Assembly (NCBI GenBank): GCA_947644595.1
Contig: CANSAE010000001.1
Location: 233,605-257,604, forward strand
Reading direction: 5' to 3'
Length of the DNA: 24,000 nt
Source: an uncultured Clostridia bacterium
Lineage (GTDB): Bacteria > Bacillota > Clostridia > Oscillospirales > Oscillospiraceae
The position numbers and the translations under genes were made by a program. Below are positions 1,113 through 15,227 of the stretch, in pieces (position 1 is the first letter of the stretch; each line of letters starts with the position of its first letter). The notes under the pieces were generated by a model that was not told the DNA's origin, did not search any database, and worked only from the letters and a program-made list of their open reading frames with translations.

Positions 1113-1613
1113 TTACCCGTTCCACGTGCCGCCCAGCGCGGCCACGGTGAAGCGTCCGGCCTTACCATCTACAATAAGACGGTTTGCGGCCTGAAAGCAC
1201 CGCACGGCATAAGCTGTGTTGCGCTCATATATGCCGCTTGCACCGGACGGCCCGCAATGATACCCGCGGGCGATCAAGGCGGCTTGCAGGGCCTTCACGT
1301 CTTCGCCTTTCATAAGCGGCTTTGTGATTTTTAAGACGCGGGCAACCGTCCAGCCTTCCGCGGCGGTCGCGTCCGGTTCCATCTGTGCCGGATCGCCGCC
1401 GCTTTCGCCAGCGTCCCCGCTGTTTCCGTTATCGGCTTCGGCGGTTTCGTTACTGCCGCCGCCTACGGGCGGGGAAGGCTCCGAAGCGTTGCCCGTTTCT
1501 GCAACTGCGGAGGGCGCGGCCTGCGGCTCTTCTGCCTTGTCCCGCTCGACGGGCGGGGCGGTCTTCGGCTTCCGGCCCGGTTTCTTCCGCGTGGTACTCT
1601 GCTTTTCGCTCAT
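1113..1613 (-). CDS. Peptidoglycan-binding-domain (PG_binding_1-like) protein with a long low-complexity N-terminus
   Basis: Track ORF 1113..1622 starts at TTG. ATG 1613 has GGAGG 9 nt upstream. The C-terminal stretch GEDVKALQAALIARGYHCGPSGASGIYERNTAYAVRCFQAANRLIVDGKAGRFTVAALG matches the PG_binding_1 repeat pattern. Confidence 0.8.
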   Translation of the reverse strand: MSEKQSTTRKKPGRKPKTAPPVERDKAEEPQAAPSAVAETGNASEPSPPVGGGSNETAEADNGNSGDAGESGGDPAQMEPDATAAEGWTVARVLKITKPLMKGEDVKALQAALIARGYHCGPSGASGIYERNTAYAVRCFQAANRLIVDGKAGRFTVAALGGTWNG

Positions 1614-1678
1614 GGTGTGCAACCTCCCTTAAAGAATATCCCCCGCCGCCGAAGCGAACGGCCAGCAGGGGCGGGGCT

Positions 1679-2113
1679 TTATGTATGCTGTTCCGTGTGC
1701 GTCTTCGGAAGGGCGAAAACGGCGGCTTCGATCGCGCCATCAACAATTTTCTTCATGTTGCTGTCAAGCTCCACCCCCGCCGCGGCGATAAACTCATACA
1801 CAAGCCGCGTCGCTTCGTCTTTCCGCTGTGCCTCTTCGATTTTGCTTGTTTTATAAAGCTGTTCCGCGGCCTCTGCCCCCTTCTGCGCCCAGCCGATCAC
1901 CTTGTCAATCAGGGCGAAGGCGGGAACATCGGGGAAGAACTCTTGCAGGGTATCAACCACCGTGTCCGCGGTTTCAAGCACCGTCCCTGTGCCAACCAGC
2001 ACGCCGGAAATGTCAATGCCCTTCTTTACCAGCCGCGGGATCACCACGGCCAGCCCGCCGAATACCGCCAGCACCGCGGCCAGCACTACCAGAAGAATAG
2101 TTGCGTTGTTCAT
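1679..2113 (-). CDS. Holin, LL-H-like family
   Basis: It has an N-terminal TM (ILLVVLAAVLAVFGGLAVVI) followed by a helical soluble part ending in IVDGAIEAAV. It lies directly downstream of the endolysin. The family assignment is from memory of the Holin_LLH architecture. Confidence 0.65.
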   Translation of the reverse strand: MNNATILLVVLAAVLAVFGGLAVVIPRLVKKGIDISGVLVGTGTVLETADTVVDTLQEFFPDVPAFALIDKVIGWAQKGAEAAEQLYKTSKIEEAQRKDEATRLVYEFIAAAGVELDSNMKKIVDGAIEAAVFALPKTHTEQHT

Positions 2114-3355: not shown

Positions 3356-3895
3356 TCACCCCCTTTCCACCCGTTCCCATTGCCACATACCCGGCGTGTC
3401 AGGCGGGTATACGCAATTCGGCATATCGCCCGCCGCCTTGTAAACCGCGCCTTTGTAGCTGTAATATAGGCCGCTCTTCACGTCCACCACTACGCCCGCC
3501 GTTTCAGGGTATGGGATCGGATCATCTGCCGCCCCCGTGTGCGCCAGCTCCACAAGGCGGTAATATGCGAAGGTAGTTGCCACGGGAAAGGCTTCTGCAT
3601 TCGACGTGTGCGGGGCGACGATCTCATACAAGAGGCCGCCCGCCTTTATAATCTCGCCCACGGTGTTATAGGCGTGATTATCTATGAATTCCGGATAATC
3701 CACCACCGCCGCCGAAGCAAGGATCATTTCATCAGAAATGGCCCCCGTTCCTGCGGCGCGGTCTTGAACGATCTGCGCCTTGAAGGAAAGGGAAAGAAGG
3801 GCGGCGGTGCTGTCGCCCGCCGCCTTCACTTCCCGAAGCTCCTTCTTCAATTCTGCCGTGCCGTCCGGCTTGTCCGGCCTGTGTGTCACGCTCAT
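3356..3895 (-). CDS. Hypothetical protein, translationally coupled (ATGA overlap) to the DGR target gene
   Basis: 179-aa ORF with high GC3, like its neighbours. ATG 3895..3893 overlaps the target stop TGA 3894..3892. I recognise no family. Confidence 0.55.
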   Translation of the reverse strand: MSVTHRPDKPDGTAELKKELREVKAAGDSTAALLSLSFKAQIVQDRAAGTGAISDEMILASAAVVDYPEFIDNHAYNTVGEIIKAGGLLYEIVAPHTSNAEAFPVATTFAYYRLVELAHTGAADDPIPYPETAGVVVDVKSGLYYSYKGAVYKAAGDMPNCVYPPDTPGMWQWERVERG

Positions 3896-5628
3896 TCAAA
3901 ATTACCCCCAATCGAAGATACCCAGCATTCGGAAAGGGCTTCGCCGCGGCCCACGGTCACGCGGACGTTTAGGCCGTACTGCACCGCCGCGTTTTCCGTG
4001 TTCTCGAAGACGTGCGCCACGCCCTGCAAAACCGCGTTCGTGCAATCCTCCCACGCGGGGGAAGGATCGAAGGGATTGTTTGTCACTTCCACTTTGAACG
4101 TGCCGCCCGCGGGAATGTTCCGCGTAACAACCACATTCGCCCGCTTCGGCTGTTGCACCGCTTCCAGCGGCGCGGAAAGATAGATTACAAAGCCGTTGAT
4201 CGCCTTCGTGAAGGTCAGCGTGCGCACCGCCGAATTTCCCGCGCTGTCCGTGGCCGTGATCGTGATTGTGTGCGCCGCGTTCGTCAGCGACGTAAAATCA
4301 TTCCCGGCCAACGTCAGGTTTACAGACTGCCCAAGCGTTGGCGTGTGCGTCTTCAAGGTCTTTCCGTCCACCTTTTCAACTACGGTCACTATGTCGCCGT
4401 CCGGATCGTCCACGGTGTAGGCATAAGAAAAGCCCTCTCGCTTCACTCCAAGATCGGCGTTCTGCCCGGAAATTGTGGGCGGCTGATTGTGGATCACCGC
4501 GGACGGGCTGGAAGTGATATATGCGCTTTCGTTGCCCACGCTGTCCCGCGCCTTCACGCGGTATTTTACTGTGTTCCAGCTTGTCAGCACATTTTCTTCA
4601 AATGTGCGGGCGGCTGTCGCCGCCACCTGTGTATAACTTCCGTTGTTTGTGGCGCGCTCCAAAATATAGGTGATCGCGTCGCCCTCCGGATCGGTGGAAG
4701 CTCCCCACGATACCGCGATTTTCTGCCCGCTGTAACAATTCGCCGGAACGGAAATGCCGGACGGTGTAGACGGCGCGGCGTTCCATTGAAATTCATAATT
4801 CCCCTTTGCGTTGGTGCTGTCAGATACCAAGATTGAAGAATTAAGATTACAAAGCGGGCGCACGCCCCGGTAGCCGCTGTCCGCGTTGCTGCTGAGCAGC
4901 GCGCCCGAAGAATAGACATAGCGCACGTAGTACGAATTGCCGGAATACGGCGTGCGAAGCCAGTAATACCAAGCCGCCGAAGCATTCAAACTGCTGTTCG
5001 TGTACGTGCTGTTTTTCACGCATTCCGCTGTCGGGTATGCAAGGCGGCTTGTGTTGTCAGAAAACAAGGCCAGCTTCACGCCTTCGGCAATGTTGTTTTC
5101 GTTTGCAAGCCCTACTTCCGTAGTTGACGGAAGGTGCATTTTCGCCTTTACGGTTTCGTAGCTCCCGCCGTCCGTAACGGTGTTTTTTGCCACCGTTACC
5201 GTTGTTTCCAGCAGGGCGGCGACAAAGCGATCATCAAGCATTGCAAGGAAGCCCGCCTTGTCGGAATACGCATTGTGACTACTCCAAACATTGGCCGCCG
5301 TTGGCGGCGCGTCCGCGCTGTGCTTCGCGCTGTACCATGTCCCCGCCGTCGCTGTGCTGTTCAGCCATTGAAGAAGGTTTGCGTACAAATAGCGGTTATT
5401 GCCGTACTGCTTCCGGTTGCCGTCGCTGTTGCTTGCCTCGATCGCGTCAAACGCCAGCAAAAACGGGATTTTGTCAGTAATCAGCGTTACGGAATTTGCC
5501 GGATAGCCTGAATGATTTTTGTCCGCAACCTTGAAGACAACCTTTTGTCCTAAAAAGGATTGAAACGCCGCTTTCACGGGAACTTCGATCGTTGCGCCTA
5601 CGGCAAGCGAACTTAAAGCCTTTGACAT
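3892..5628 (-). CDS. DGR target protein: N-terminal lectin-fold-like variable domain (carries the VR), then FN3/Ig-like repeats and a C-terminal domain; probable tail fibre or receptor-binding protein
   Basis: Track ORF 3892..5667 starts at GTG. ATG 5628 has AAGGAGG (5644..5638) 9 nt upstream, inside the RT 3' end. The stretch WYYWLRTPYSGNSYYVRYVYSSGALLSSNADSGYRGVRPL is the ligand-binding end typical of C-type-lectin-fold DGR targets. An FN3-like stretch follows: SVPANCYSGQKIAVSWGASTDPEGDAITYILERATNNGSYTQV...VKYRVKARDSVGNES. Confidence 0.85.
   Translation of the reverse strand: MSKALSSLAVGATIEVPVKAAFQSFLGQKVVFKVADKNHSGYPANSVTLITDKIPFLLAFDAIEASNSDGNRKQYGNNRYLYANLLQWLNSTATAGTWYSAKHSADAPPTAANVWSSHNAYSDKAGFLAMLDDRFVAALLETTVTVAKNTVTDGGSYETVKAKMHLPSTTEVGLANENNIAEGVKLALFSDNTSRLAYPTAECVKNSTYTNSSLNASAAWYYWLRTPYSGNSYYVRYVYSSGALLSSNADSGYRGVRPLCNLNSSILVSDSTNAKGNYEFQWNAAPSTPSGISVPANCYSGQKIAVSWGASTDPEGDAITYILERATNNGSYTQVAATAARTFEENVLTSWNTVKYRVKARDSVGNESAYITSSPSAVIHNQPPTISGQNADLGVKREGFSYAYTVDDPDGDIVTVVEKVDGKTLKTHTPTLGQSVNLTLAGNDFTSLTNAAHTITITATDSAGNSAVRTLTFTKAINGFVIYLSAPLEAVQQPKRANVVVTRNIPAGGTFKVEVTNNPFDPSPAWEDCTNAVLQGVAHVFENTENAAVQYGLNVRVTVGRGEALSECWVSSIGGNFE
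4852..4952 (-). repeat. DGR variable region (VR)
   Basis: It aligns without gaps to 6887..6987 (offset 2035). There are 12 mismatches, and 11 are at positions where the TR coding strand has A. Confidence 0.9.
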
Positions 5629-5632
5629 TCCT

Positions 5633-6715
5633 TCATTCCTCCTTTTCTGAAATTGAACCGCCGTCACGCTCTTTCAGCGCGGCGGCGGCCTTGTTGAAGT
5701 ATTTGTTAAAATGCTGATCCATGTTCCGGATCAAGTGATAGCAATTCCCTTTTGCCGCGTGGCCGCGCCAACTCTGGTATGATTGCTTTACCGCGTCCGG
5801 CTCAATCTTCCCGGCCTCCATCAGCCCGCACAATTTCTTCACCTTGCGGCGGGCGTTGCTCTTTGACTTCCGGCGTACCTTGCGGATCACCCCGCCCGTT
5901 TCCGTCAAATATGTATGGAAGCCTAAAAAATCAATTCCGTTCTTCAACGGATATATAGCCGTTTTCTCATTCAGGGAAAGCCCCATTTCATTTACACGCC
6001 GTTCAATCTCCTTCCAGCAATAGCGCAAATATTCCCGGTCTTCATGGATCAAATAAAAATCGTCCATATAGCGGCCATAGAATTTCACGCCCAATTTTTC
6101 CTTGATGAAGTGATCCAGCGGCGAAAGATAAAGCAGGGCGAAAAGCTGTGAAGATTGATTGCCGATCGGAATTCCTACGTTGCCTTCCGTGCTGTCTATA
6201 ATCATGTCCAGCAACCACACGCATTCGGGATCGTCAACATATTTCCGCACAAGCTCCTTCAAAACGTCATGCCTGATCGAATAGAAGTATTTGCGAATGT
6301 CGCCTTTCAGCACCCAGCCGTCAACGCCCTTCTTCCGGTAAAACCGCCGCATGAACTCTTCCAGACGTTCAAGCCCGAAGTGTGTTCCTTTGCCTTCCTG
6401 CGACGCGTAATTATCCTTGATGAAGGACGGCAAAACCCGCGGCCCTAACACGTTGTCGCATAGGGCGTGTTGCACAACCTTGTCTTTGTAGCTGTTCGAC
6501 ATTACAATGCGTTCTTTCGGCTCATACACTTTGAACGTGTTATATGGTGAAAGGCGGTAAGTTTTCGCCCGTAACTGCGCGCTTAAAAGGTGCAAGGCTT
6601 CCAGCAAGTTTACTTCAAACTTCGCCGCCGCTCCCTTCCAGCGTTTGCCGCGCCGTGCCTTCCGGTATGCGCGGTATAGATTTTCAAAATTCCATACTTT
6701 TTCAAAGTCCGTCAT
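5633..6715 (-). CDS. DGR reverse transcriptase
   Basis: It has the RT motifs, including IPIGNQSSQLFALLYL (the [ILV]GxxxSQ motif diagnostic of DGR RTs) and YMDDF. It is about 360 aa with no intron maturase or endonuclease domains. It lies adjacent to the TR and an Avd-like gene. Confidence 0.93.
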   Translation of the reverse strand: MTDFEKVWNFENLYRAYRKARRGKRWKGAAAKFEVNLLEALHLLSAQLRAKTYRLSPYNTFKVYEPKERIVMSNSYKDKVVQHALCDNVLGPRVLPSFIKDNYASQEGKGTHFGLERLEEFMRRFYRKKGVDGWVLKGDIRKYFYSIRHDVLKELVRKYVDDPECVWLLDMIIDSTEGNVGIPIGNQSSQLFALLYLSPLDHFIKEKLGVKFYGRYMDDFYLIHEDREYLRYCWKEIERRVNEMGLSLNEKTAIYPLKNGIDFLGFHTYLTETGGVIRKVRRKSKSNARRKVKKLCGLMEAGKIEPDAVKQSYQSWRGHAAKGNCYHLIRNMDQHFNKYFNKAAAALKERDGGSISEKEE

Positions 6716-6886
6716 TTATAAAAAAGCTCCTTGCCGTGTGTAACCTCGGCCAAGCCCTGCGGCTATGCTCCGGTATCGGCAATCTTGTATTTATCCCTGC
6801 TGTGGATAGCAGGGAAGGGAAACACTTTCCTTTGATGGTGGTATTGTGTTTTCGGCCTGCGGCCTACTCTGTCGAATGATCCACCG

Positions 6887-6987
6887 AAGCGGGCGCACGC
6901 CCCTGTTGCCGTTGTACGCGTTGTTGTTGTTCAGCGCGCCCGAAGAATTGACATTGCGCACGTTGTACGAATTGCCGGAATTCGGCG
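6887..6987 (-). repeat. DGR template repeat (TR)
   Basis: This noncoding copy of the VR lies between avd and the RT. Its VR-equivalent frame reads PNSGNSYNVRNVNSSGALNNNNAYNGNRGVRPL, with 11 AAY Asn codons. It has 25 coding-strand adenines. Confidence 0.9.
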
Positions 6988-7041
6988 GCGGGGCGTGCAA
7001 AAGGAAAAGAAGAACCTACAAAGTGTTCCCCAAACGGTTTT

Positions 7042-7446
7042 CTAAGCTCTCGTTTTGTCCCGCTTCTTCCACGCGGCCACCATGTACTTTACATCAAGAA
7101 CCAGTTTCGACCAATAATCGCAACTTTTCATTGAAATAAAGCCCATTTCGTGCGAAAGCTCAATAAAAAATAGAAGCTCCTTGCAATAGGTCATTGCCCG
7201 CGCTTGAAGCCTCTGCCGTTGTCTGAATTCGTCCGCTTGCCGCAAATCTAATTCGTTCGCTTCAAGCGTCATTTCGTATATGTCAACCGCTTTATCCTGA
7301 ATGCGGTTCACCAGCGTAAAGCGGTATTTCTTCGGGTAACGCTCCGTGCTGTTGGTGATCGTGAAGGTGTGCTTTACAAGGTCTTTCGCCTTCACAATCA
7401 CGTTGAATTCGGAAGGCTCCTTGCGTTCCCGTTCCTGCCCCTGCAT
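7042..7446 (-). CDS. avd: Accessory variability determinant (Avd), four-helix-bundle protein
   Basis: 134 aa, helical and basic. The stretch KAKDLVKHTFTITNSTERYPKKYRFTLVNRIQDKAVDIYEMTLEAN is typical of Avd / 23S-rRNA-IVS-like four-helix-bundle proteins. It sits directly 5' of the TR. AAAGGA lies upstream of ATG 7446. Confidence 0.85.
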   Translation of the reverse strand: MQGQERERKEPSEFNVIVKAKDLVKHTFTITNSTERYPKKYRFTLVNRIQDKAVDIYEMTLEANELDLRQADEFRQRQRLQARAMTYCKELLFFIELSHEMGFISMKSCDYWSKLVLDVKYMVAAWKKRDKTRA

Positions 7447-7674
7447 TCAAGCACCGTCCTTTCCTGATCCGCTCTAAAAGCGCGGTATCTTCGGCGCACC
7501 CCTCAAAATCGAAGCCCGCCGCCGTGATTGTCAGCGTGGCCGCGTGGCCGGACGGCGTAACGCCGCATAGCACCACCGCCGCCGAACCGCCGCACATTTC
7601 GCACGGCGGGCGAAGCTCTGTGAAGATGTTGCCGATTATGCACGATAATTCCGCGCCCGTGCAAGCGCACCGCG

Positions 7675-8565
7675 TCAACATTCGATCCGGCGCAACGCCG
7701 CATTCCATACGCCCGTTGATACCACGCCGTCCAAATCATCAAAGAGGATCAAGAACGGGTTTGCCGTTATGTCATTGAAAAGCACGGCTTCGATCAACTC
7801 AATGCGCGCGGTGTTGCTCTGTATCATGTTCACTAAATGGCCTACGGTGTCTTCGTCAAGCACGTTCTTCACCGAAGCGAACCATGCGTTGAAGTCGTTT
7901 TCCGCTTCCAGCTTAAACGCGTTCATGTAGGCTTGCAGGGCGTTATACTGCTGATCCCCCAAAAGCTCCAAACTTTCCATATAGGACACAAGATCGTTGA
8001 ACTCTTCAAGGCTCTGTGCCTTGTAGTCCGTGAACCACGCTTGAAGCTGTGCATTAAACGCGGTGGTGTCTATCTGATCCACCACGCCCGCCACCACTCC
8101 ACAAAGGGAAGGATCAAGGCGGCGATCCGTTATGACAGCCTGCGATATGGCCGTAACGCCTGCGCCCGTTGTAATGTCCGCAAGGCACAATTCGTATGCG
8201 TCCGCGTCCCTCTGCAACGCGGGCGGCGTGGGCGACGCGGAAGGCGTGGAAGACTTCACCACAACGGAAATTAACCTTTCCGTCAAGTCCCAGCGCACAA
8301 CAATTCGATCAATCCGGTTCAAAACGCCATCCGCAACCGGAAGCGTAAGGGAAAGATCGCCCGTGTTGTAATAGAAATAGCCGTTGATCCATGCCTTGCC
8401 TGCCTTCACGGTCACAACCATTCCCGAACCCGCCACAACTTGAAGATTGTTTGACGGGACGGGGAACACGCCGTTGCCGATAAAAGAAGCGAAGTATTCG
8501 GCCCATTCCTCAGCACGGTATACGCGATCATGGGAAACGGAATTGAAAAAACTTGATTTTTCCAT
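7675..8565 (-). CDS. Tail fibre / baseplate-associated structural protein (family not identified)
   Basis: 296-aa ORF with AAAGGGGTG upstream. It sits downstream of the Dit and Gp37-like genes. The N-terminal stretch FFNSVSHDRVYRAEEWAEYFASFIGNGVF...VTVKAGKAWINGYFY recurs in fibre-like proteins of Firmicute phages (from memory). Confidence 0.55.
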   Translation of the reverse strand: MEKSSFFNSVSHDRVYRAEEWAEYFASFIGNGVFPVPSNNLQVVAGSGMVVTVKAGKAWINGYFYYNTGDLSLTLPVADGVLNRIDRIVVRWDLTERLISVVVKSSTPSASPTPPALQRDADAYELCLADITTGAGVTAISQAVITDRRLDPSLCGVVAGVVDQIDTTAFNAQLQAWFTDYKAQSLEEFNDLVSYMESLELLGDQQYNALQAYMNAFKLEAENDFNAWFASVKNVLDEDTVGHLVNMIQSNTARIELIEAVLFNDITANPFLILFDDLDGVVSTGVWNAALRRIEC

Positions 8566-8577
8566 GTTTTCACCCCT

Positions 8578-9693
8578 TTACTTTGCAATTTGCCGTATCT
8601 GTGTAAGCAGGGCGGGCAAGCTCTCACCAAAGGTAATGTCGATTTCCTCAATGTTCTGTTGGTATGTTTCGGACACTTCGGTAATACGAACGTTGATCTT
8701 GATACCCCACCGTTTATTTACGCACGTTACCCTGTCGCCTAAGTCGTAGTCTTCGCGGTATTTCAGGTTTGCGTGCGTGTTGATCTTGCTGGAAAAACTC
8801 AACGTTTCGGCGTATTGTTCCAGCTCCGACGCGCCCCGCTCCAAGAGGCAAGCCAAATATTCCGCGTCCGTGCGCGTAATCTCCGTTTGCGTGCTGTCCG
8901 TGTAAACCTTCGTAATATCCGTTGCGTTTACAAAGATTTCTTCACGGTCAAGGCCGGACGCGCCGCCGCCTACTTCGGCCACAACCCGCGGTTCTACCTC
9001 TTCGCCGCCCACGTATGCGGTTGTTTTCAGGTTTTCAACGCTGTTTGTGTATTCCTGCTCTGTGATATTGTCGAATTCCTGCGAAAAGATACAAGGCGGG
9101 TTTTCTGTCTGATCCGCGGTCAGGTTGCGGCCAGCGTAGACGCTGAAATAGTGCTTTCCCGCGCGCACATCCGAACGTGAACGGAAGCCCAGCTTTGCCG
9201 CCTTTGCCGCCGTTTCCACCGCCAGAAGCGCATTTATAAAGGCTTCGGACGTATAATTGATTTTCCCGCTTCCCGTGTCCACGTCCAGCGGATCAAGAAG
9301 GATATTCGGAATTTTGCGGGCGACCACCCGCGGGGAAATGATATTTTCGCGGACAATCCGGTATAGAATATCCTGTGTCCCGCTCGTTGCTGTGATCTGA
9401 TCGCGCACAATGCGCTTTCCGATCCATTGCGTGATAAATTTGCCCTGCACTTCGATTTCTTCAAGGCCCTGCGAATTCTTGCTTATGTTCACATAGCGGA
9501 TTTCCGCGGCCTCCGTGTCCCCACGCTTCAAAATCAGGCGGTTTTTAATCAGAAGGGCAACGTGCCTTTCTGTGAACGGCACAAGCAATTTGAATTCCCC
9601 TGCCGCCCAATACCGCCGCGTCCAGATAAGGGAAGAAATTTCGTCAATCACCCCTTGAAGGATCATGTTTCGGTCATATATGTAAAGCTCCAC
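8578..9693 (-). CDS. Siphovirus Gp37-like tail protein (ReqiPepy6 Gp37 family, Tal-position gene)
   Basis: The N-terminal stretch MELYIYDRNMILQGVIDEISSLIWTRRYWAAGEFKLLVP is the recognisable start of the Sipho_Gp37 family. It lies directly after Dit. The start is GTG, 3 nt after the Dit stop. Confidence 0.7.
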   Translation of the reverse strand: MELYIYDRNMILQGVIDEISSLIWTRRYWAAGEFKLLVPFTERHVALLIKNRLILKRGDTEAAEIRYVNISKNSQGLEEIEVQGKFITQWIGKRIVRDQITATSGTQDILYRIVRENIISPRVVARKIPNILLDPLDVDTGSGKINYTSEAFINALLAVETAAKAAKLGFRSRSDVRAGKHYFSVYAGRNLTADQTENPPCIFSQEFDNITEQEYTNSVENLKTTAYVGGEEVEPRVVAEVGGGASGLDREEIFVNATDITKVYTDSTQTEITRTDAEYLACLLERGASELEQYAETLSFSSKINTHANLKYREDYDLGDRVTCVNKRWGIKINVRITEVSETYQQNIEEIDITFGESLPALLTQIRQIAK

Positions 9694-9696
9694 GCC

Positions 9697-10569
9697 TCAC
9701 ACCCCCAAATATAGATCATCGTGGTATATGGACACTTCCAGATTTTCAAGGTTTCCTTCTGCGGAATATCTGAAAAGGTTATCCCCAACAGAAAGTTGCA
9801 AATATGAACTGTCCACGTCCAGATAGCGGAACGCGTCCGTTACAATGCCGCCGTGCTTCAAGGTTACTTCTTTTTCCCCGTAGCCCGTGGAAACGGTCAG
9901 CGTGTCGCCTGCTTCCATCGTGTAATTTAGCTTGATGAATTCTTGCGTGTCCACGTTCAAAAGGGCGGGGTTTGTCACCATGCCCAGCGCGCGGAACTCC
10001 ACGCGTATTCCGGCCTGCACGTCCCCGTCGTTATACACGTTCACGATCAAGGAAGGTTGCCTATACCCAATTTCCCACCCCGGCACGATCTCAACGGGGA
10101 ATTCCAGCCCGCCGATCCACGTTGCTATATCGTCCCGCGTCTTGCTCTCCTTCCTCCAAAACGGATTAAGGCAAAGAAGCTGTATTGTGAAGTCCTGAAA
10201 AATGGCCTTGCGCGTGAACACGGGCGCGTTGTCAACCTTGCAATCAATCACCCGCACAAAATCGCCGTACTGATATGTCAGCGTGGCGGCGTACTGCGGG
10301 TTTAGAACGCGGTTCAGCCTGCGGCGGTATTCCCGCATTTGATCCTTGTTCCGCTCCTTGATACTGCCCACAATCTCAATTTCGCGGCTTTCTATGCGGT
10401 TGCCTAAATAGGTGTCGCCGTCCTGCCCCATGCTGTTTATGCTGTAAATTGCGTTGCGAACGTCAGAAAGGCCGCTAACGCTGTTCGTGTGGTAAACGGA
10501 AGCGTGGGAAAAGGCTACGCTTTCCCCACGCTCATTCGTATATGTCAGTATTTCGATCTTCCTTGCCAT
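9697..10569 (-). CDS. Distal tail protein (Dit, phage tail family protein)
   Basis: Its position is immediately after the tape measure; the ATG overlaps the TMP TAA as TAATG. At 290 aa it is the usual Dit size. The N-terminal pattern is ILTYTNERGESVAFS...SGLSDVRN. Confidence 0.75.
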   Translation of the reverse strand: MARKIEILTYTNERGESVAFSHASVYHTNSVSGLSDVRNAIYSINSMGQDGDTYLGNRIESREIEIVGSIKERNKDQMREYRRRLNRVLNPQYAATLTYQYGDFVRVIDCKVDNAPVFTRKAIFQDFTIQLLCLNPFWRKESKTRDDIATWIGGLEFPVEIVPGWEIGYRQPSLIVNVYNDGDVQAGIRVEFRALGMVTNPALLNVDTQEFIKLNYTMEAGDTLTVSTGYGEKEVTLKHGGIVTDAFRYLDVDSSYLQLSVGDNLFRYSAEGNLENLEVSIYHDDLYLGV

Positions 10570-13500
10570 TACGCCATTACCTCCCGCGCGATCATGCGGA
10601 ATTGCTTTGCGGCCTCCCGCTGTTGCTGTGCATAGCTCGTTTCATTGGCATAGATGTTTTGCACCACCTGAACGCCGCCGCCCCGCTCATTGCGGTTCAC
10701 CCTGCCGGAAGGCTGTTTCACTTCCGGCACGCTGGAAGCCGTGGCCGTGCGGATCGTCTTTTCAACGTCCCGCATTTCGCGGGCAAATCCTTGCCCTAAA
10801 CCTTCGGCCATGTATGCGCCAATTCCTGCAAATACCTTCGACGGGGAATTGATCTGCATTTCTGCTTCCACGGCGGCAACAATACGCCTCATCATAGAAC
10901 GCACATTGCTTTCCAGCCAGCCGGACATATTTTGAAAGCCCTGCCAAATGCCGCGCACCATGTTTTCCCCCGCCGCCGTAAACTGCGACGTGAAGCCGTT
11001 TAATGTTGTGACAATGGATTGAACGATCTGCGACATTTTGCCCGTGATTTCCGGTATACCCTGCACCATGCCGGACGCTATGGCCTTGTCCATGTCCACG
11101 CCTTCCGTTGTTAGCTTGCTATGCTGTGCGGTAAAGGCGGTAATAATGGATTGAACCACCTGCGCGGCCTTGCCCGTGATCTGCGGTATACCCTGCACCA
11201 TGCCAGACGCTATGGCCTTGTCCATGTTCACGCCCTCGGTTGTCAGCTTTCCATGCTGTGCGGTGAAGGCGGTAATGATGGATTGAACGATCTGTGCGGC
11301 CTTGCCTGTGATCTGCGGAATGCCGTTCACCATGCCGGACGCTATGGCCTTGTCCATTTCTACGCCTTCCGTTGTCAGCCTTCCGTGCTGTGCGGTGAAG
11401 GCCGTAATAACGGATTGTATTACTTCGGCCATCTTGCCCGTTATACTGCCCAGCCCGTTTATTATGCCTTCGGAAATGCGGGCGGCCATATCTACGCCTA
11501 TTTGCCCGAATTGTCCAGCCTGCGCCGTCATTCCGGCTACTACCTGTTGCACAATGGCCGTTACCGCGCCGTCCAGCGCGGCCACGTTGGATATAATGCC
11601 GTCGTTCACCGAACGCACCGCTTCGGCGGCGGTCATTTCCCCCGCGCCACCCATTGCGGCGGTCATTTCAGAAGAAACGCCGCCCATGCTGTCACCAAAG
11701 CCCACGCCTACGCCTTCGCCCATATACGAACCGATTTCCGCAAATACGGTGGAAGGGGAGTGAATGCCAAAAAACCCCTTTATGTTCGATACAAGGTTAG
11801 AAGCCCAGCCGGACACCTGTTGCCACAACCAGCCCGCCGCCCCGCTGATACCTTCCCACAACCCGCGAAGCAGATTGCCGCCCGCGTTGATAAGCTCCCC
11901 GCGTAGGTTAGAAAATGCCTGCACAATGCCCGTTACAATCTGCGGCACGGCCTTCACGATTTCAACAATGATTGTCGGAAGATTTTTTATCAGCGAAACG
12001 AACAGTTGCACGCCTGCTTGTACGATCTGCGGTATACTTCCAACCAAAGCCGTTACAAGAGAAGTGATTATTTGCGGTATAGCCGCGACAACGGTTGTAA
12101 TGATTTCCGGCAATGCCTGAATCAGCGACACAAATAATTCAATGCCCGCTTGAATAATCTGCGGTATGCTGTTTGTTAGGGCTGTCACCAGCGAAGAAAC
12201 AATTTGCGGTATTGCGGTAACAACGGTTGTAATGATTTCCGGCAATGCCTGAATCAGCGACACAAACAATTCAATGCCCGCTTGAATGATCTGCGGTATA
12301 CTGTTTGTTAAGGCGGTCAGCAGTCCGGCCAAAATCTGCGGGATTGCCCCGACAATCGTTGCAATGATTTCCGGCAATGCCTGAATCAGCGACACAAATA
12401 ATTCAATGCCTGCTTGAATAATCTGCGGTATACTGCCAGTTAAGGCAGTTATAAGCCCCTCTATAATCTGCGGGATCGCCGCAACGATTGTTTCAATAAT
12501 CTGCGGCAAGGCTTGTACAAGAGAAGTGAAAAGGGAAATACCCGCTTGAATGATCTGCGGGATTGCCGAAAGAAGCCCGTCAATCAACTCCGTTATCAGA
12601 GAAGGAAGCGCGGCCACCAAAACGGGAACCGCGTTTATAATCCCTTGCGCAAGCCCTGTTATAAGCTGTAATGCCGCGTCGATCAACATAGGGATATTTT
12701 CAACCAGCGTTTGCACCATTGCAACCACGACTTCAACGATCTTCGGTAACAACTGCGGCAACGCTTCCCCGATCCCGTTTGCCAGCGCAAGAACAATCTG
12801 CACCGCCCCTTCCAGAAGAAGGGGAAGAACGCTTATAAGCCCGTCGATCAAAGAAAGGATAATTTGCGTTGCGGCTTCTGCAATCGCGGGCAAGGCCCCA
12901 ATCAGCCCTTGCACAATCGCGTTTATCATTTCTACCGCCGCTGTGCTGATTGTCGGAAGGCTTGTTACAAGCCCGTCAACCAGCCCTAACACAATTTCGG
13001 TTGCAAACTCTGTAATCTGTGGAAGGATCGTCGAAAAGTCTTCCACCAATCCGGCAAGGGCTGTCCCGAATGTGTCAGCCATTTTAGAAATATCGCCGTT
13101 TGCGGAAGTCGCGCCCGCCGAAAGCTCATTGACAAAATCTGAAAGGGCGGGTAATGCCTCTTGCCCTATGGGAAGGACAAAGTTTGTTTTCAGGACGCGC
13201 CCCAAACCGGACATTGCCGATCCAAAATCATCATACTTTACCGCATTTATCGCGGAAAGCGCGTCTGTTGTGGTGCTAATTTCGCCGTTCAGGTTTGTTA
13301 AAGCCTTCATGCCCTCAACGCCTAAATCTTCCCACATTGTCCCGAACAAGGCAACGCCCGCCGCGTTCTGTGCTAAAGGATCGTCCATAGCAAAAAGGGC
13401 GGCTGTCACGTCTTCAAACGCTTTCGCCGCCTGATCCCCGCCAGCGGCAAAGGCCGCCGCGGTTTCTTCTGCATTTACTCCAATGTCTGCGAACGCCTGC

Positions 13501-15227
13501 ATTGTGCCGTCCGAACCGTCTTTAACCCTGATCCCGAATTCCTTTACAGCGTCGCCCAGCTTGTCAACGGAAAACGTGCCAGCACTTGCGCCGTTTGCGA
13601 AGCTGTTAAACATATCTTCCGCGTCAAGTCCAAGCGTTTTGAAATGCACGGAATATTCGTTGATACTGTCCAGCAAGTCCCCGTTTTTATCAAGGCCGTT
13701 TTGCGCGCCCTGCGCAATCAGGTTAAACGCGTCTTCGCCGGACATTCCGAACTGATCCATAAGCATATTGACGGCGCGCATTTGCTCTTGTATGTCATAT
13801 CCGAAGGTATCACGCAACATAAGGGCGTTTTGCGTCATTGCTTCAATGTTCGCCGGATCAAGGTCTTTTGCGGTCTGCGCCACCGTGGACATTGCGGCGG
13901 CTATGTCCTCCATGTTTTCCCCGAAGTTGTTGTTGTAGATGTTCAACATGGCTTCGTCAAAACCTTTTGCCGCCGCTTCCGCAATGCCTGTTGACGCTTC
14001 AAAATCGTTCATTGCGCTTTTGACTTCATCAGCGAAGCCCACGGCATACCCGATCCCCGCAACCATAGCCGTTCCGATTGCGGCAACGCTTATGCCGATC
14101 GCTTTTAGCCCTGCTCCCATAGCGGAAAAAGCGCCGCTAAAATCCGCGCTGTTCTTTGTGCCTTCTTCAAGCTCCCGGTTCAGCGCGTCAAGCTGATTTT
14201 CGGTTTCGTACATACCCGTGCGGGCTTCGGTCAAAGCCCTTTGAAGCGTCTGCGCCTCTTCGGACATTGCCCCTTGCTGTTGAACCGCTGTTTTATAGGC
14301 GGCTTCTGCCTGTTCAACCTTCTTCTTTTGCTCTGCAAGAGCTTTGTTCAAAATCTCTTGTTTCGCGGTGATCCCGTCAATTTTGTTTTCGCTGTTGGCG
14401 TATTGCGCCGTTACCATTTTTAGTTCGGCGGCCAAATCTCCTAAAGTACCGTCAATCTCTTTTGCGGCAATCTGGTATTGCGTAAAGGCTTTTTCCGCTT
14501 CACTTACTTGCGCGGTTTCTTTTGCAAGCTCTGAATTCAATTCGTTTATTTGCTTTTGTGTCGAGTTGAATTCCTGCCGCGCCCCTTCAAGCTGTTGTTT
14601 CAAAGAAACAGTTTCCTCGGAAAACTCCCCCGTTTCATGTGCGGCGCGGTTATACGCATTTGTTAGTTGCTCAATTTTCTTCCCCTGTTGCTCCTGAATT
14701 TGCGAAAGAATTTTACCGTTTTTTGTCAATGCCTCTGTTTTGTTAGAAGTAATCCCCATTTCAGAAGCCGCGGTTTTCAATTCCGCTCCAAGCACGGACA
14801 AATGACGGTCAATTTCGTTCACGGAATCAGAATAACTATTTCCTGTTTTTTTAGCCGCTTCAAGCTGTACCGATGTTTTACTTAACTCGTTTTGGGTTCT
14901 AACCATTTCGGCCTTTGCATTATTTAGGTTTGTTTGCATTTTTAAGAGCGCAGGATCATTTTTCTCCAATGCGCCCTGCATTTTCCCTAACGCGGCTTCT
15001 GCGGCGGCCACGGCCTTCTTTTGTTCTTCAAGCTGCTTATTCAAAACGCCTTGTTTCGCGGTCAAACCCTCAATACTTTTTTCGTTTCCCTCGAATTCAG
15101 CAGAAACGAGTTTCATTTCCGAACCAATTTCCCGAAGGGAAGCATTTATCCCTTTGCAGGCATCCCTATACTCCTTTTCGCCATCAACGACAATTTTTGT
15201 TCTAATTGCATCTTCCTTGCCTGCCAT
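10569..15227 (-). CDS. Tail tape measure protein (1552 aa)
   Basis: It is the largest ORF. It has an N-terminal coiled coil (K/E/Q-rich), central hydrophobic Gly/Ala segments and internal 44-aa tandem repeats. It lies between the chaperone and Dit. GGAGGGAG lies upstream of ATG 15227. Confidence 0.95.
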   Translation of the reverse strand: MAGKEDAIRTKIVVDGEKEYRDACKGINASLREIGSEMKLVSAEFEGNEKSIEGLTAKQGVLNKQLEEQKKAVAAAEAALGKMQGALEKNDPALLKMQTNLNNAKAEMVRTQNELSKTSVQLEAAKKTGNSYSDSVNEIDRHLSVLGAELKTAASEMGITSNKTEALTKNGKILSQIQEQQGKKIEQLTNAYNRAAHETGEFSEETVSLKQQLEGARQEFNSTQKQINELNSELAKETAQVSEAEKAFTQYQIAAKEIDGTLGDLAAELKMVTAQYANSENKIDGITAKQEILNKALAEQKKKVEQAEAAYKTAVQQQGAMSEEAQTLQRALTEARTGMYETENQLDALNRELEEGTKNSADFSGAFSAMGAGLKAIGISVAAIGTAMVAGIGYAVGFADEVKSAMNDFEASTGIAEAAAKGFDEAMLNIYNNNFGENMEDIAAAMSTVAQTAKDLDPANIEAMTQNALMLRDTFGYDIQEQMRAVNMLMDQFGMSGEDAFNLIAQGAQNGLDKNGDLLDSINEYSVHFKTLGLDAEDMFNSFANGASAGTFSVDKLGDAVKEFGIRVKDGSDGTMQAFADIGVNAEETAAAFAAGGDQAAKAFEDVTAALFAMDDPLAQNAAGVALFGTMWEDLGVEGMKALTNLNGEISTTTDALSAINAVKYDDFGSAMSGLGRVLKTNFVLPIGQEALPALSDFVNELSAGATSANGDISKMADTFGTALAGLVEDFSTILPQITEFATEIVLGLVDGLVTSLPTISTAAVEMINAIVQGLIGALPAIAEAATQIILSLIDGLISVLPLLLEGAVQIVLALANGIGEALPQLLPKIVEVVVAMVQTLVENIPMLIDAALQLITGLAQGIINAVPVLVAALPSLITELIDGLLSAIPQIIQAGISLFTSLVQALPQIIETIVAAIPQIIEGLITALTGSIPQIIQAGIELFVSLIQALPEIIATIVGAIPQILAGLLTALTNSIPQIIQAGIELFVSLIQALPEIITTVVTAIPQIVSSLVTALTNSIPQIIQAGIELFVSLIQALPEIITTVVAAIPQIITSLVTALVGSIPQIVQAGVQLFVSLIKNLPTIIVEIVKAVPQIVTGIVQAFSNLRGELINAGGNLLRGLWEGISGAAGWLWQQVSGWASNLVSNIKGFFGIHSPSTVFAEIGSYMGEGVGVGFGDSMGGVSSEMTAAMGGAGEMTAAEAVRSVNDGIISNVAALDGAVTAIVQQVVAGMTAQAGQFGQIGVDMAARISEGIINGLGSITGKMAEVIQSVITAFTAQHGRLTTEGVEMDKAIASGMVNGIPQITGKAAQIVQSIITAFTAQHGKLTTEGVNMDKAIASGMVQGIPQITGKAAQVVQSIITAFTAQHSKLTTEGVDMDKAIASGMVQGIPEITGKMSQIVQSIVTTLNGFTSQFTAAGENMVRGIWQGFQNMSGWLESNVRSMMRRIVAAVEAEMQINSPSKVFAGIGAYMAEGLGQGFAREMRDVEKTIRTATASSVPEVKQPSGRVNRNERGGGVQVVQNIYANETSYAQQQREAAKQFRMIAREVMA
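11011..11443 (-). repeat. In-frame 132-bp (44-aa) tandem repeat family 2 within the tape measure, about 3.3 copies
   Basis: The unit is ITGKAAQIVQSIITAFTAQHGKLTTEGVNMDKAIASGMVQGIPQ. The marker CATGCC recurs at 11067, 11199 and 11331, a 132-bp period. Confidence 0.85.
11910..12570 (-). repeat. In-frame 132-bp (44-aa) tandem repeat family 1 within the tape measure, about 5 copies
   Basis: The unit is SIPQIIQAGIELFVSLIQALPEIITTVVAAIPQIITSLVTALTN. TTCCGGCAATGCCTGAATCAGCGACACAAA recurs at 12105, 12237 and 12369. More diverged copies lie near 11973 and 12501. Confidence 0.9.

Follow-up and report, generated by a model that had tools for sequence, protein, structure and literature searches.

Tentaclins, as described by Baykov et al. 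2023 (PMC10743442), are targets of diversity-generating retroelements (DGRs). They carry an N-terminal C-type-lectin domain in which the variable repeat forms a surface beta-hairpin, followed by one to four immunoglobulin (Ig)-like domains. The final one, which bears a seven-residue family consensus, is a putative anchor to the virion. Earlier publications already cover DGRs, DUF6273 targets, tentaclins and cassettes with two targets. Here we describe a DGR of this kind in a 24,000-nt stretch of contig CANSAE010000001.1 from an uncultured Clostridia bacterium; "the window" denotes this whole stretch. All DGR parts in the window lie on the minus strand, which is the coding strand, in the order accessory gene avd, template repeat (TR), structured spacer RNA, reverse transcriptase (RT) gene and target gene with its variable repeat (VR1). 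From our analyses we conclude that this is very probably a functional DGR in a prophage. It is a further case of the nd12-like, tentaclin-targeting, two-target DGR subtype published in 2023, and not a discovery.

With phage nd12 (OR777946; PMC10743442) the locus shares the gene order structural protein, avd, TR, RT, tentaclin, a gene of ~178 amino acids (aa), holin and amidase, at ~75% nucleotide identity. In both, the VR lies near the 5' end of the target, in a DUF6273/C-lectin-like domain ahead of the Ig-like domains, the TR is rich in AAC/AAT codons, and a second, small DUF6273 target lies remote from the cassette in the early region (VR2 of nd12 is at 31956-32025). The phage backbones differ, the match being limited to this module. 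The window copy is an integrated prophage, whereas no nd12-like prophage was reported in PMC10743442; its TR has 25 adenines, against 28-29 in nd12; and the second target of the window lineage lacks an extra N-terminal segment, its alignment beginning at residue 99 of nd12_tgt2.

The Bordetella phage BPP-1 system (Mtd/Avd/TR/bRT) resembles the locus in its adenine-specific TR-to-VR transfer, its AAY codon design, its Avd homologue, a structured spacer RNA directly 3' of the TR and a homology that ends in a GC-rich block. The order is avd-TR-RT-target in the window but target-avd-TR-RT in BPP-1, and the VR lies in the N-terminal lectin-like domain of a 578-aa, Ig-rich protein, whereas that of BPP-1 is at the C-terminus of the trimeric Mtd. 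The elements known in BPP-1 as IMH and IMH* (initiation of mutagenic homing) differ at several internal positions, whereas the corresponding block of the window is the same in TR and VR. Further differences from BPP-1 are that no cruciform is detectable 3' of the window VR, that the window Avd is too diverged for a sequence match in the PDB, and that the window lineage has two targets, one of them ~21 kb away.

DGRs of Faecalibacterium prophages (Lelie, CP11, Roos and Pioen, and Mushu/Brigit with "Hoc-like" targets; PMC11792537) likewise occur in prophages of related gut Clostridia, with the VR at the C-terminal end of DUF6273, and some have a large and a small DUF6273 target on one TR. They belong to different phage lineages, and the likeness is drawn from their published description. 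The Mushu/Brigit targets have four Ig-like domains and ~7% overall identity to nd12-type tentaclins (PMC10743442).

Template and variable repeats

6887..6987, minus strand: template repeat (TR), 101 nt with 25 adenines; the non-coding copy
6887..6903, minus strand: GC-rich 3' end of the TR (GGGGCGTGCGCCCGCTT), common to VR1 (4852-4868) and VR2
4852..4952, minus strand: variable repeat 1 (VR1), aa 239-272 of a 591-aa open reading frame (ORF)

The direct repeat 4852-4952/6887-6987 was the single long pair returned by a repeat search, with 101 nt aligned gap-free at 88% identity. When TR and VR1 were compared base by base on the minus strand, 12 mismatches were found, 11 of them at TR adenines (plus-strand T at 6904, 6907, 6912, 6924, 6927, 6930, 6931, 6949, 6955, 6964 and 6982). 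The TR contains 25 A and 76 non-A positions, which were changed in 11/25 and 1/76 cases, respectively (one-sided Fisher p = 2.9e-7). The TR encodes the peptide PNSGNSYNVRNVNSSGALNNNNAYNGNRGVRPL and VR1 encodes PYSGNSYYVRYVYSSGALLSSNADSGYRGVRPL, with nine of the 11 AAY codons recoded. An earlier reading of this DNA, made without database searches (hereafter the sequence-only reading), had proposed the ungapped 101-bp alignment at these coordinates, the 12 mismatches with the 11 listed adenines, the 25 A and 76 non-A positions, and both peptides with the recoded codons; the computed alignment reproduced all of this. Its figure of about 15^11 variants from the AAY codons is also arithmetically sound (8.65e12).

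The 25 TR adenines reside in AAY (22), TAC (2) and AGG (1) codons, and because all of them do so, adenine mutagenesis can never yield a stop codon. When the 11 AAY, two TAC and one AGG codons are considered together, the coding capacity is ~4e14 protein variants.

The homology of TR and VR1 stops after the GC-rich GGGGCGTGCGCCCGCTT, beyond which the flanks diverge. This 17-nt block closes the homology in TR, VR1 and the remote VR2 alike, and it is the same in TR and VR1, without internal IMH/IMH* differences. The end of the homology had been described as IMH/IMH*-like, which is appropriate in so far as it falls in a GC-rich run, but not as regards an IMH/IMH* distinction or a cruciform. An adenine-masked scan of both strands found no second VR within the window, the best candidate, with 39/76 non-A matches, being at background level.

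The tentaclin target

3892..5628, minus strand: target gene 1, tentaclin (578 aa; PHROG 10993, E = 5e-197); ORF open from GTG 5667
4840..5496, minus strand: DUF6273/C-type-lectin-like domain (Pfam PF19789, E = 2e-33, aa 58-276)

The target probably starts at ATG 5628 (578 aa) and not at GTG 5667, because homologues and gene calls begin there. It is 70% identical end to end to target 1 of phage nd12 (nd12_tgt1), and VR1 (aa 239-272) occupies the C-terminal end of its DUF6273 domain. A VR-bearing N-terminal C-lec/DUF6273 domain followed by Ig-like domains is what distinguishes a tentaclin, and homology securely places the protein in this family.

The DUF6273 domain resembles an IgA protease structure, PDB 9qa6, both in sequence (E = 7.7e-9) and in Foldseek (E = 1.2e-5, TMq 0.57), where 9qa6 was the only match when the N-terminal domain model was searched alone. 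The N-terminal domain of 9qa6 has a C-type-lectin-like core according to the authors of the structure (PMC12237041). DUF6273 thereby links phage DGR targets with a surface protease of a gut bacterium, the IgA protease of Thomasclavelia ramosa. The AlphaFold2 (AF2) models place beta-sandwich domains from about residue 260 to 470, mostly with a predicted local distance difference test (pLDDT) score >85, which give rise to the FN3/Ig matches; Foldseek with the full-length model returned FN3/Ig tandem-domain proteins only and was uninformative on the lectin domain. The last ~100 residues align with nd12_tgt1 gap-free and at high identity, and AF2 confidence there is low (40-60).

The PHROG label of this family, "Hoc-like head decoration", which is also the best full-length match, raises the possibility that the DGR is real and its target a Hoc-like decoration protein or adhesin. 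Such a protein would be anchored C-terminally to the capsid or elsewhere, its lectin domain binding environmental or mucosal ligands and not a bacterial receptor. Its polarity, from lectin N-terminus through FN3/Ig domains to a conserved C-terminal domain, is like that of Hoc and opposite to that of Mtd. T4 Hoc likewise consists of an Ig-like chain that projects its distal N-terminal part, its C-terminal domain being the proposed anchor. The tentaclin authors themselves leave open both bacterial receptors and intestinal/immune cells (PMC10743442). However, T4 Hoc is not the target of a DGR and lacks a lectin domain at its N-terminus, its C-terminal anchor is structurally different, and the published tentaclin models are unlike T4 Hoc in both terminal domains (PMC10743442). 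The PHROG label probably mirrors Ig-domain similarity only. Moreover, the window gene lies in the tail/lysis region and not in a head module, between tail-tip genes (Dit, Sipho_Gp37 and a 296-aa structural protein) and the holin and endolysin genes. Fibres and receptor-binding proteins are usually encoded in this interval between tail-tip and lysis genes. On balance we consider a Hoc-like target possible but unlikely. The sequence-only reading had spoken of a tail-fibre module and of a receptor-binding surface. The former is a fair positional label, drawn from the location of the gene between tail-tip and lysis genes; the binding role implied by the latter was likewise taken from gene position.

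A second target outside the window

L169 4792-4866 (= NODE_4 292116-292190; window-equivalent ~28317-28391), minus strand: VR2, in a 269-aa DUF6273 protein

On contigs that continue the prophage (related sequences are cited below by L numbers), a second variable repeat, VR2, lies 4.3 kb past the right end of the window and ~21.3 kb from the TR. Over its 75 nt, 8/18 TR adenines are changed and there are zero other mismatches. Its 269-aa DUF6273 protein (PHROG 9958; here tgt2) is 48% identical to nd12_tgt2, and the VR2 alleles of L167 and L168 differ from that of the window lineage at adenine positions only. As judged from these repeats, one TR feeds two targets, and the element as a whole is a two-target DGR. 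The DGR had been called complete, which is true of the cassette in the window but not of its targets, as the second lies outside.

The neighbours of the tgt2 gene are early genes, namely Lar, Dam, REP_ORF2-G2P (a replication initiator) and VRR_NUC, an odd position for a presumed receptor-binding protein. No signal peptide was seen by eye in tgt2.

A more far-reaching reading would assign the two targets different purposes, neither of them that of a classical host-range determinant. The tentaclin would, in the manner of Hoc, be anchored by its C-terminus and serve as an adhesin for mucosal or other non-host ligands, and tgt2 would be a non-structural intracellular binder directed against variable host factors such as defence proteins. 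We regard this combination as doubtful.

Diversification in related sequences

At least 597 stretches in IMG/VR encode related RTs, and 80 of these loci were fetched. In ~70 of the 80, a TR was found upstream of the RT and a VR ~700 nt downstream, and nearly every mismatch between the two fell at a TR adenine. Where loci had one and the same TR, their VR columns varied at 233/359 TR-A positions versus 12/971 non-A positions; L041 and L042, for example, have identical flanks and differ at 12 VR positions.

Within the window lineage, the TR is 101/101 identical in L082, L083, L084 and L085, and the VRs all differ. The number of VR1 changes from the TR is 13 in L082, 12 in L083, 9 in L084, 13 in L085 and 13 in L089, all at adenines bar one (in L085). 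L089 is the cultured isolate Neglectibacter sp. X58, which has an RT 98% identical to that of the window; its sequence is truncated upstream of the VR and hence does not include the TR. Because these five sequences carry five VR1 alleles and the TR is unchanged in four, repeated recent retrohoming is indicated, and by this evidence the element is a recently active DGR. The target proteins support this. In a set of 41 that are 90-98% identical, the columns holding 8-13 residue types coincide precisely with the 11 AAY codons, variability is moderate at the TAC and AGG codons, and mean column entropy is 1.0 inside the VR versus 0.11 elsewhere. Public sequences therefore bear out the expectation that population variation would fall at the TR adenines: the TR is invariant and VR variation is nearly all at TR-adenine positions, as seen in contig-level alleles.

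The window's own VR1 allele has a different distribution, and since it recurs on 18 contigs of one study, it is stable as long as that host strain harbours the phage as a prophage, unlike the diversity between studies.

Reverse transcriptase, Avd and spacer RNA

5633..6715, minus strand: DGR reverse transcriptase (360 aa; Pfam RVT_1; PHROG 1423, E = 7e-132)
6146-6166 and 6059-6070, minus strand: RT motifs IGNQSSQ and YMDD, respectively, within the 360-aa ORF
7042..7446, minus strand: avd (134 aa), DGR accessory protein (PHROG 3206 "Avd protein of DGR", E = 3.5e-26)
6716..6886, minus strand: structured spacer RNA (putative equivalent of the DGR "Sp" RNA) in the TR-to-RT gap (covariation; weak Rfam RT-2 match)

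The closest solved relative of the RT is PDB 8ub7_A (328 aa; E = 1.9e-43), a group II intron RT reaching only 1.8e-13. We take 8ub7_A to be the Bordetella phage bRT because its residue numbering (D138, I181, Q187, D215 and D216) agrees with that of the bRT residues named in bioRxiv 10.1101/2023.10.23.563531. The window RT aligns with bRT over 5-336, its IGNQSSQ with IGSLTSQ (pattern I-G-x-x-x-S-Q) and its YMDD with YMDD, so that the catalytic aspartates and the base-contacting I...Q residues are kept. These results support an RT akin to bRT in which catalytic and base-selecting residues are conserved. The claim of an RT with both motifs beside the TR is thereby confirmed, and the proposed check of its family membership came out in the same direction, as bRT came out ahead of a group II intron RT by sequence similarity in the PDB search, and the group II, Drt and retron profiles scored far below their cut-offs. 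Matches of the RT to PADLOC DRT models reflect generic RT similarity, and no intron or retron RNA family was matched by Rfam in the window.

The adjacent 134-aa protein, which had been described as Avd-like and four-helical, matched Avd profiles, well in PHROG 3206 and weakly in NCBIfam and Pfam. The same 134-aa gene, again with a weak bAvd match, was called on identical contigs. Between it and the gene for the 296-aa structural protein lies a 229-nt gap (7447-7674), covered solely by a probably spurious ORF at 7292-7708; nd12 has small ORFs at the matching place.

The 171-nt spacer between TR and RT yielded an RNAalifold consensus across 22 related loci with compensatory changes in 18/31 pairs. 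Its covariation score of 0.384, computed with the 3' side of one helix (columns 169-174) one column off, which leaves the 18/31-pair consensus unaffected, compares with 0.167 for shuffles (0/500 as high) and <=0.17 for slid-partner controls. The weakly matching Rfam family RT-2 is one of the "RT" motifs found beside RT genes by Weinberg et al. (PMC5737381). The covariation supports the view that the spacer is a conserved, structured RNA and the likely counterpart of BPP-1 "Sp", which provides the priming site in that system (bioRxiv 10.1101/2023.10.23.563531).

Within the spacer, UUGCCG pairs, with covariation, with a CGGCAA just 5' of AAGGAG, the ribosome-binding site of the RT gene. A further CGGCAA lies in the TR (6906-6912), ~20 nt from its 3' end, which makes an alternative TR:spacer pairing possible; this may bear on priming or on control of RT translation. 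As a BPP-1-like priming duplex this pairing is unconvincing, since the better partner for UUGCCG is the CGGCAA ahead of the RT ribosome-binding site, and a search of TR and spacer located neither a BPP-1-like duplex between the TR 3' end and the spacer nor a priming nucleotide.

Assessment of the reading

All defining parts of the DGR named in the sequence-only reading (avd, TR, RT and target with VR) are present, with the VR in a lectin-like domain, and we put the probability of a functional DGR in a prophage, with the parts ordered as described, at about 0.93. Several observations count against it or against parts of it. TR and VR1 differ at a single non-adenine position, T>G at 6916/4881, which turns TAC into GAC (Y263D). 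The best NCBIfam match of the RT was the group II RT model, far under its cut-off (110 bits vs 300); the scores for Drt3a (67 vs 200) and retron St85 (36 vs 235) were also below theirs. The Avd ORF likewise stayed below the cut-offs of NCBIfam DivGenRetAVD (42 bits vs 80) and Pfam bAvd (28.8 vs 40) and had no match among PDB sequences. The RT-2 (RF03077) match of the spacer, at 6711-6881, scored 24.6 bits, under the gathering score of 40, and Rfam gave no match at gathering level in 12 related loci. Neither VR1 nor VR2 has on its 3' side a significant cruciform or a hairpin like that of BPP-1 (z-scores -0.7 and -1.3). The AF2 models have pLDDT <50 across the VR, and surface exposure of the VR is not supported by these models. 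Finally, the window's exact VR1 allele is the one on all 18 contigs (L170-L173 and 14 others) of the single ENA study, and activity in this very prophage copy is deduced from the alleles of its relatives.

The last point, together with the non-adenine substitution accumulated in the VR, could also be expected of a fossil DGR whose parts are recognizable but inactive and whose VR differences are relics; a relative, L166, has indeed had most of the RT, target and lysis genes deleted. Yet all ORFs are intact and YMDD is preserved, five lineage sequences have five VR1 alleles beside a TR that is fully conserved wherever it is included, and VR2 alleles differ between near-identical contigs. We therefore consider a fossil element very improbable.

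That TR and VR are an ordinary diverged duplication or recombination remnant next to a group II intron, retron or defence RT, as the sub-threshold RT matches to group II, Drt3a and retron models (NCBIfam) and DRT models (PADLOC) might suggest, is scarcely credible given 11/12 differences at adenines (p = 3e-7), the same bias in ~70 related loci, the lead of 30 orders of magnitude that bRT holds as best solved relative, NCBIfam matches all far below cut-offs, the lack of Rfam matches to intron RNA domains or retron msr/msd, and the adjacent Avd homologue. Such an identity of the RT is effectively refuted, its scores being far under the cut-offs and the associated RNA families lacking.

Proposed mechanism

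For the functional DGR that we favour, we propose that an RT-Avd complex would bind an RNA that extends from the 3' end of avd through the TR and spacer. The RT would copy the TR into cDNA, misincorporating opposite adenines, and the cDNA would replace the VR, anchored by the common GC-rich 3' block. As a result, up to 11 Asn (AAY), two Tyr and one Arg codons could be recoded, giving ~4e14 variants and never a stop. The recoded residues would lie at the C-terminal end of the N-terminal lectin-like DUF6273 domain, ahead of the Ig/FN3-like domains and the conserved C-terminal domain. The same TR would also supply the remote VR2 in the small DUF6273 protein ~21 kb away. By analogy with BPP-1, cDNA synthesis may be primed in cis from a spacer adenosine, Avd may play a corresponding role, homing may be directional, and diversification may alter ligand or host-receptor specificity.

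Prophage setting and neighbouring genes

The window contains a complete siphovirus-type structural and lysis arm. The structural genes are, in order, those for the small and large terminase, portal, protease, major capsid, major tail and a 1552-aa tape measure, followed by Dit (9697-10569), the Sipho_Gp37 tail-tip protein (8578-9693), the 296-aa structural protein and the DGR cassette. Past the cassette lie a 179-aa gene, a holin-like gene and an amidase-SPOR endolysin gene. The terminase and target proteins of the window recur as exact sequences on NODE_4 (340 kb) of ENA ERZ14650957, which matches the window at 100% identity in both overlapping parts. Beyond the left end of the window come an HTH gene, the toxin-antitoxin genes HicA/HicB and, where the prophage meets the host, an rve-family integrase gene (L170 15430-17513), as well as host housekeeping genes. 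Judged by this arrangement, the phage is integrated as a prophage, flanked by host DNA within a bacterial contig, and the carrier is best explained as a siphovirus-like prophage of a gut Oscillospiraceae-type Clostridia bacterium.

3356..3895, minus strand: 179-aa downstream gene (PHROG 27545, unknown function; weak CBM_5_12 match)

The 179-aa gene overlaps the stop of target 1 by 4 nt and stands beside the tentaclin gene also in nd12 and in all close contigs. It may encode a partner, a chaperone or a second fibre component.

Downstream of the main holin and amidase genes, a second lysis-like pair is found at 1113-2113, minus strand, consisting of a 144-aa holin-like ORF and a 169-aa PG_binding_1 endolysin-like ORF. 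The tape-measure gene (10569-15227) has internal repeats of ~84% identity, offset by 132 nt, around 12070-12509. Its product varies in length among near-identical phages, with 1552 aa here and 1346 or 1316 aa in L082, L167 and L168, which would imply variation in tail length.

The deletion variant L166 (IMGVR_UViG_2889778758_000005; 97% identical) has avd and the TR, breaks off ~250 nt into the RT gene and then continues straight into the endolysin gene. Its junction corresponds to window 6463/2617, a ~3.85-kb deletion that takes most of the RT gene, the target gene, the 179-aa gene and the holin gene; it could instead be a misassembly. This contig was the only one returned by an exact-pattern scan of IMG/VR with the adenine-masked 3' half of the TR.

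Significance

The value of this locus lies in its being a well-documented natural example of a known subtype: an integrated prophage with host flanks, many VR alleles set against an invariant TR, and a near-identical copy in Neglectibacter sp. X58. If tgt2 were indeed an intracellular binder, this would be a new use for a phage DGR. The system could make tractable the site of the tentaclin on the virion, the nature of its ligand, and the reason why one TR serves both a virion protein and an early-region protein.

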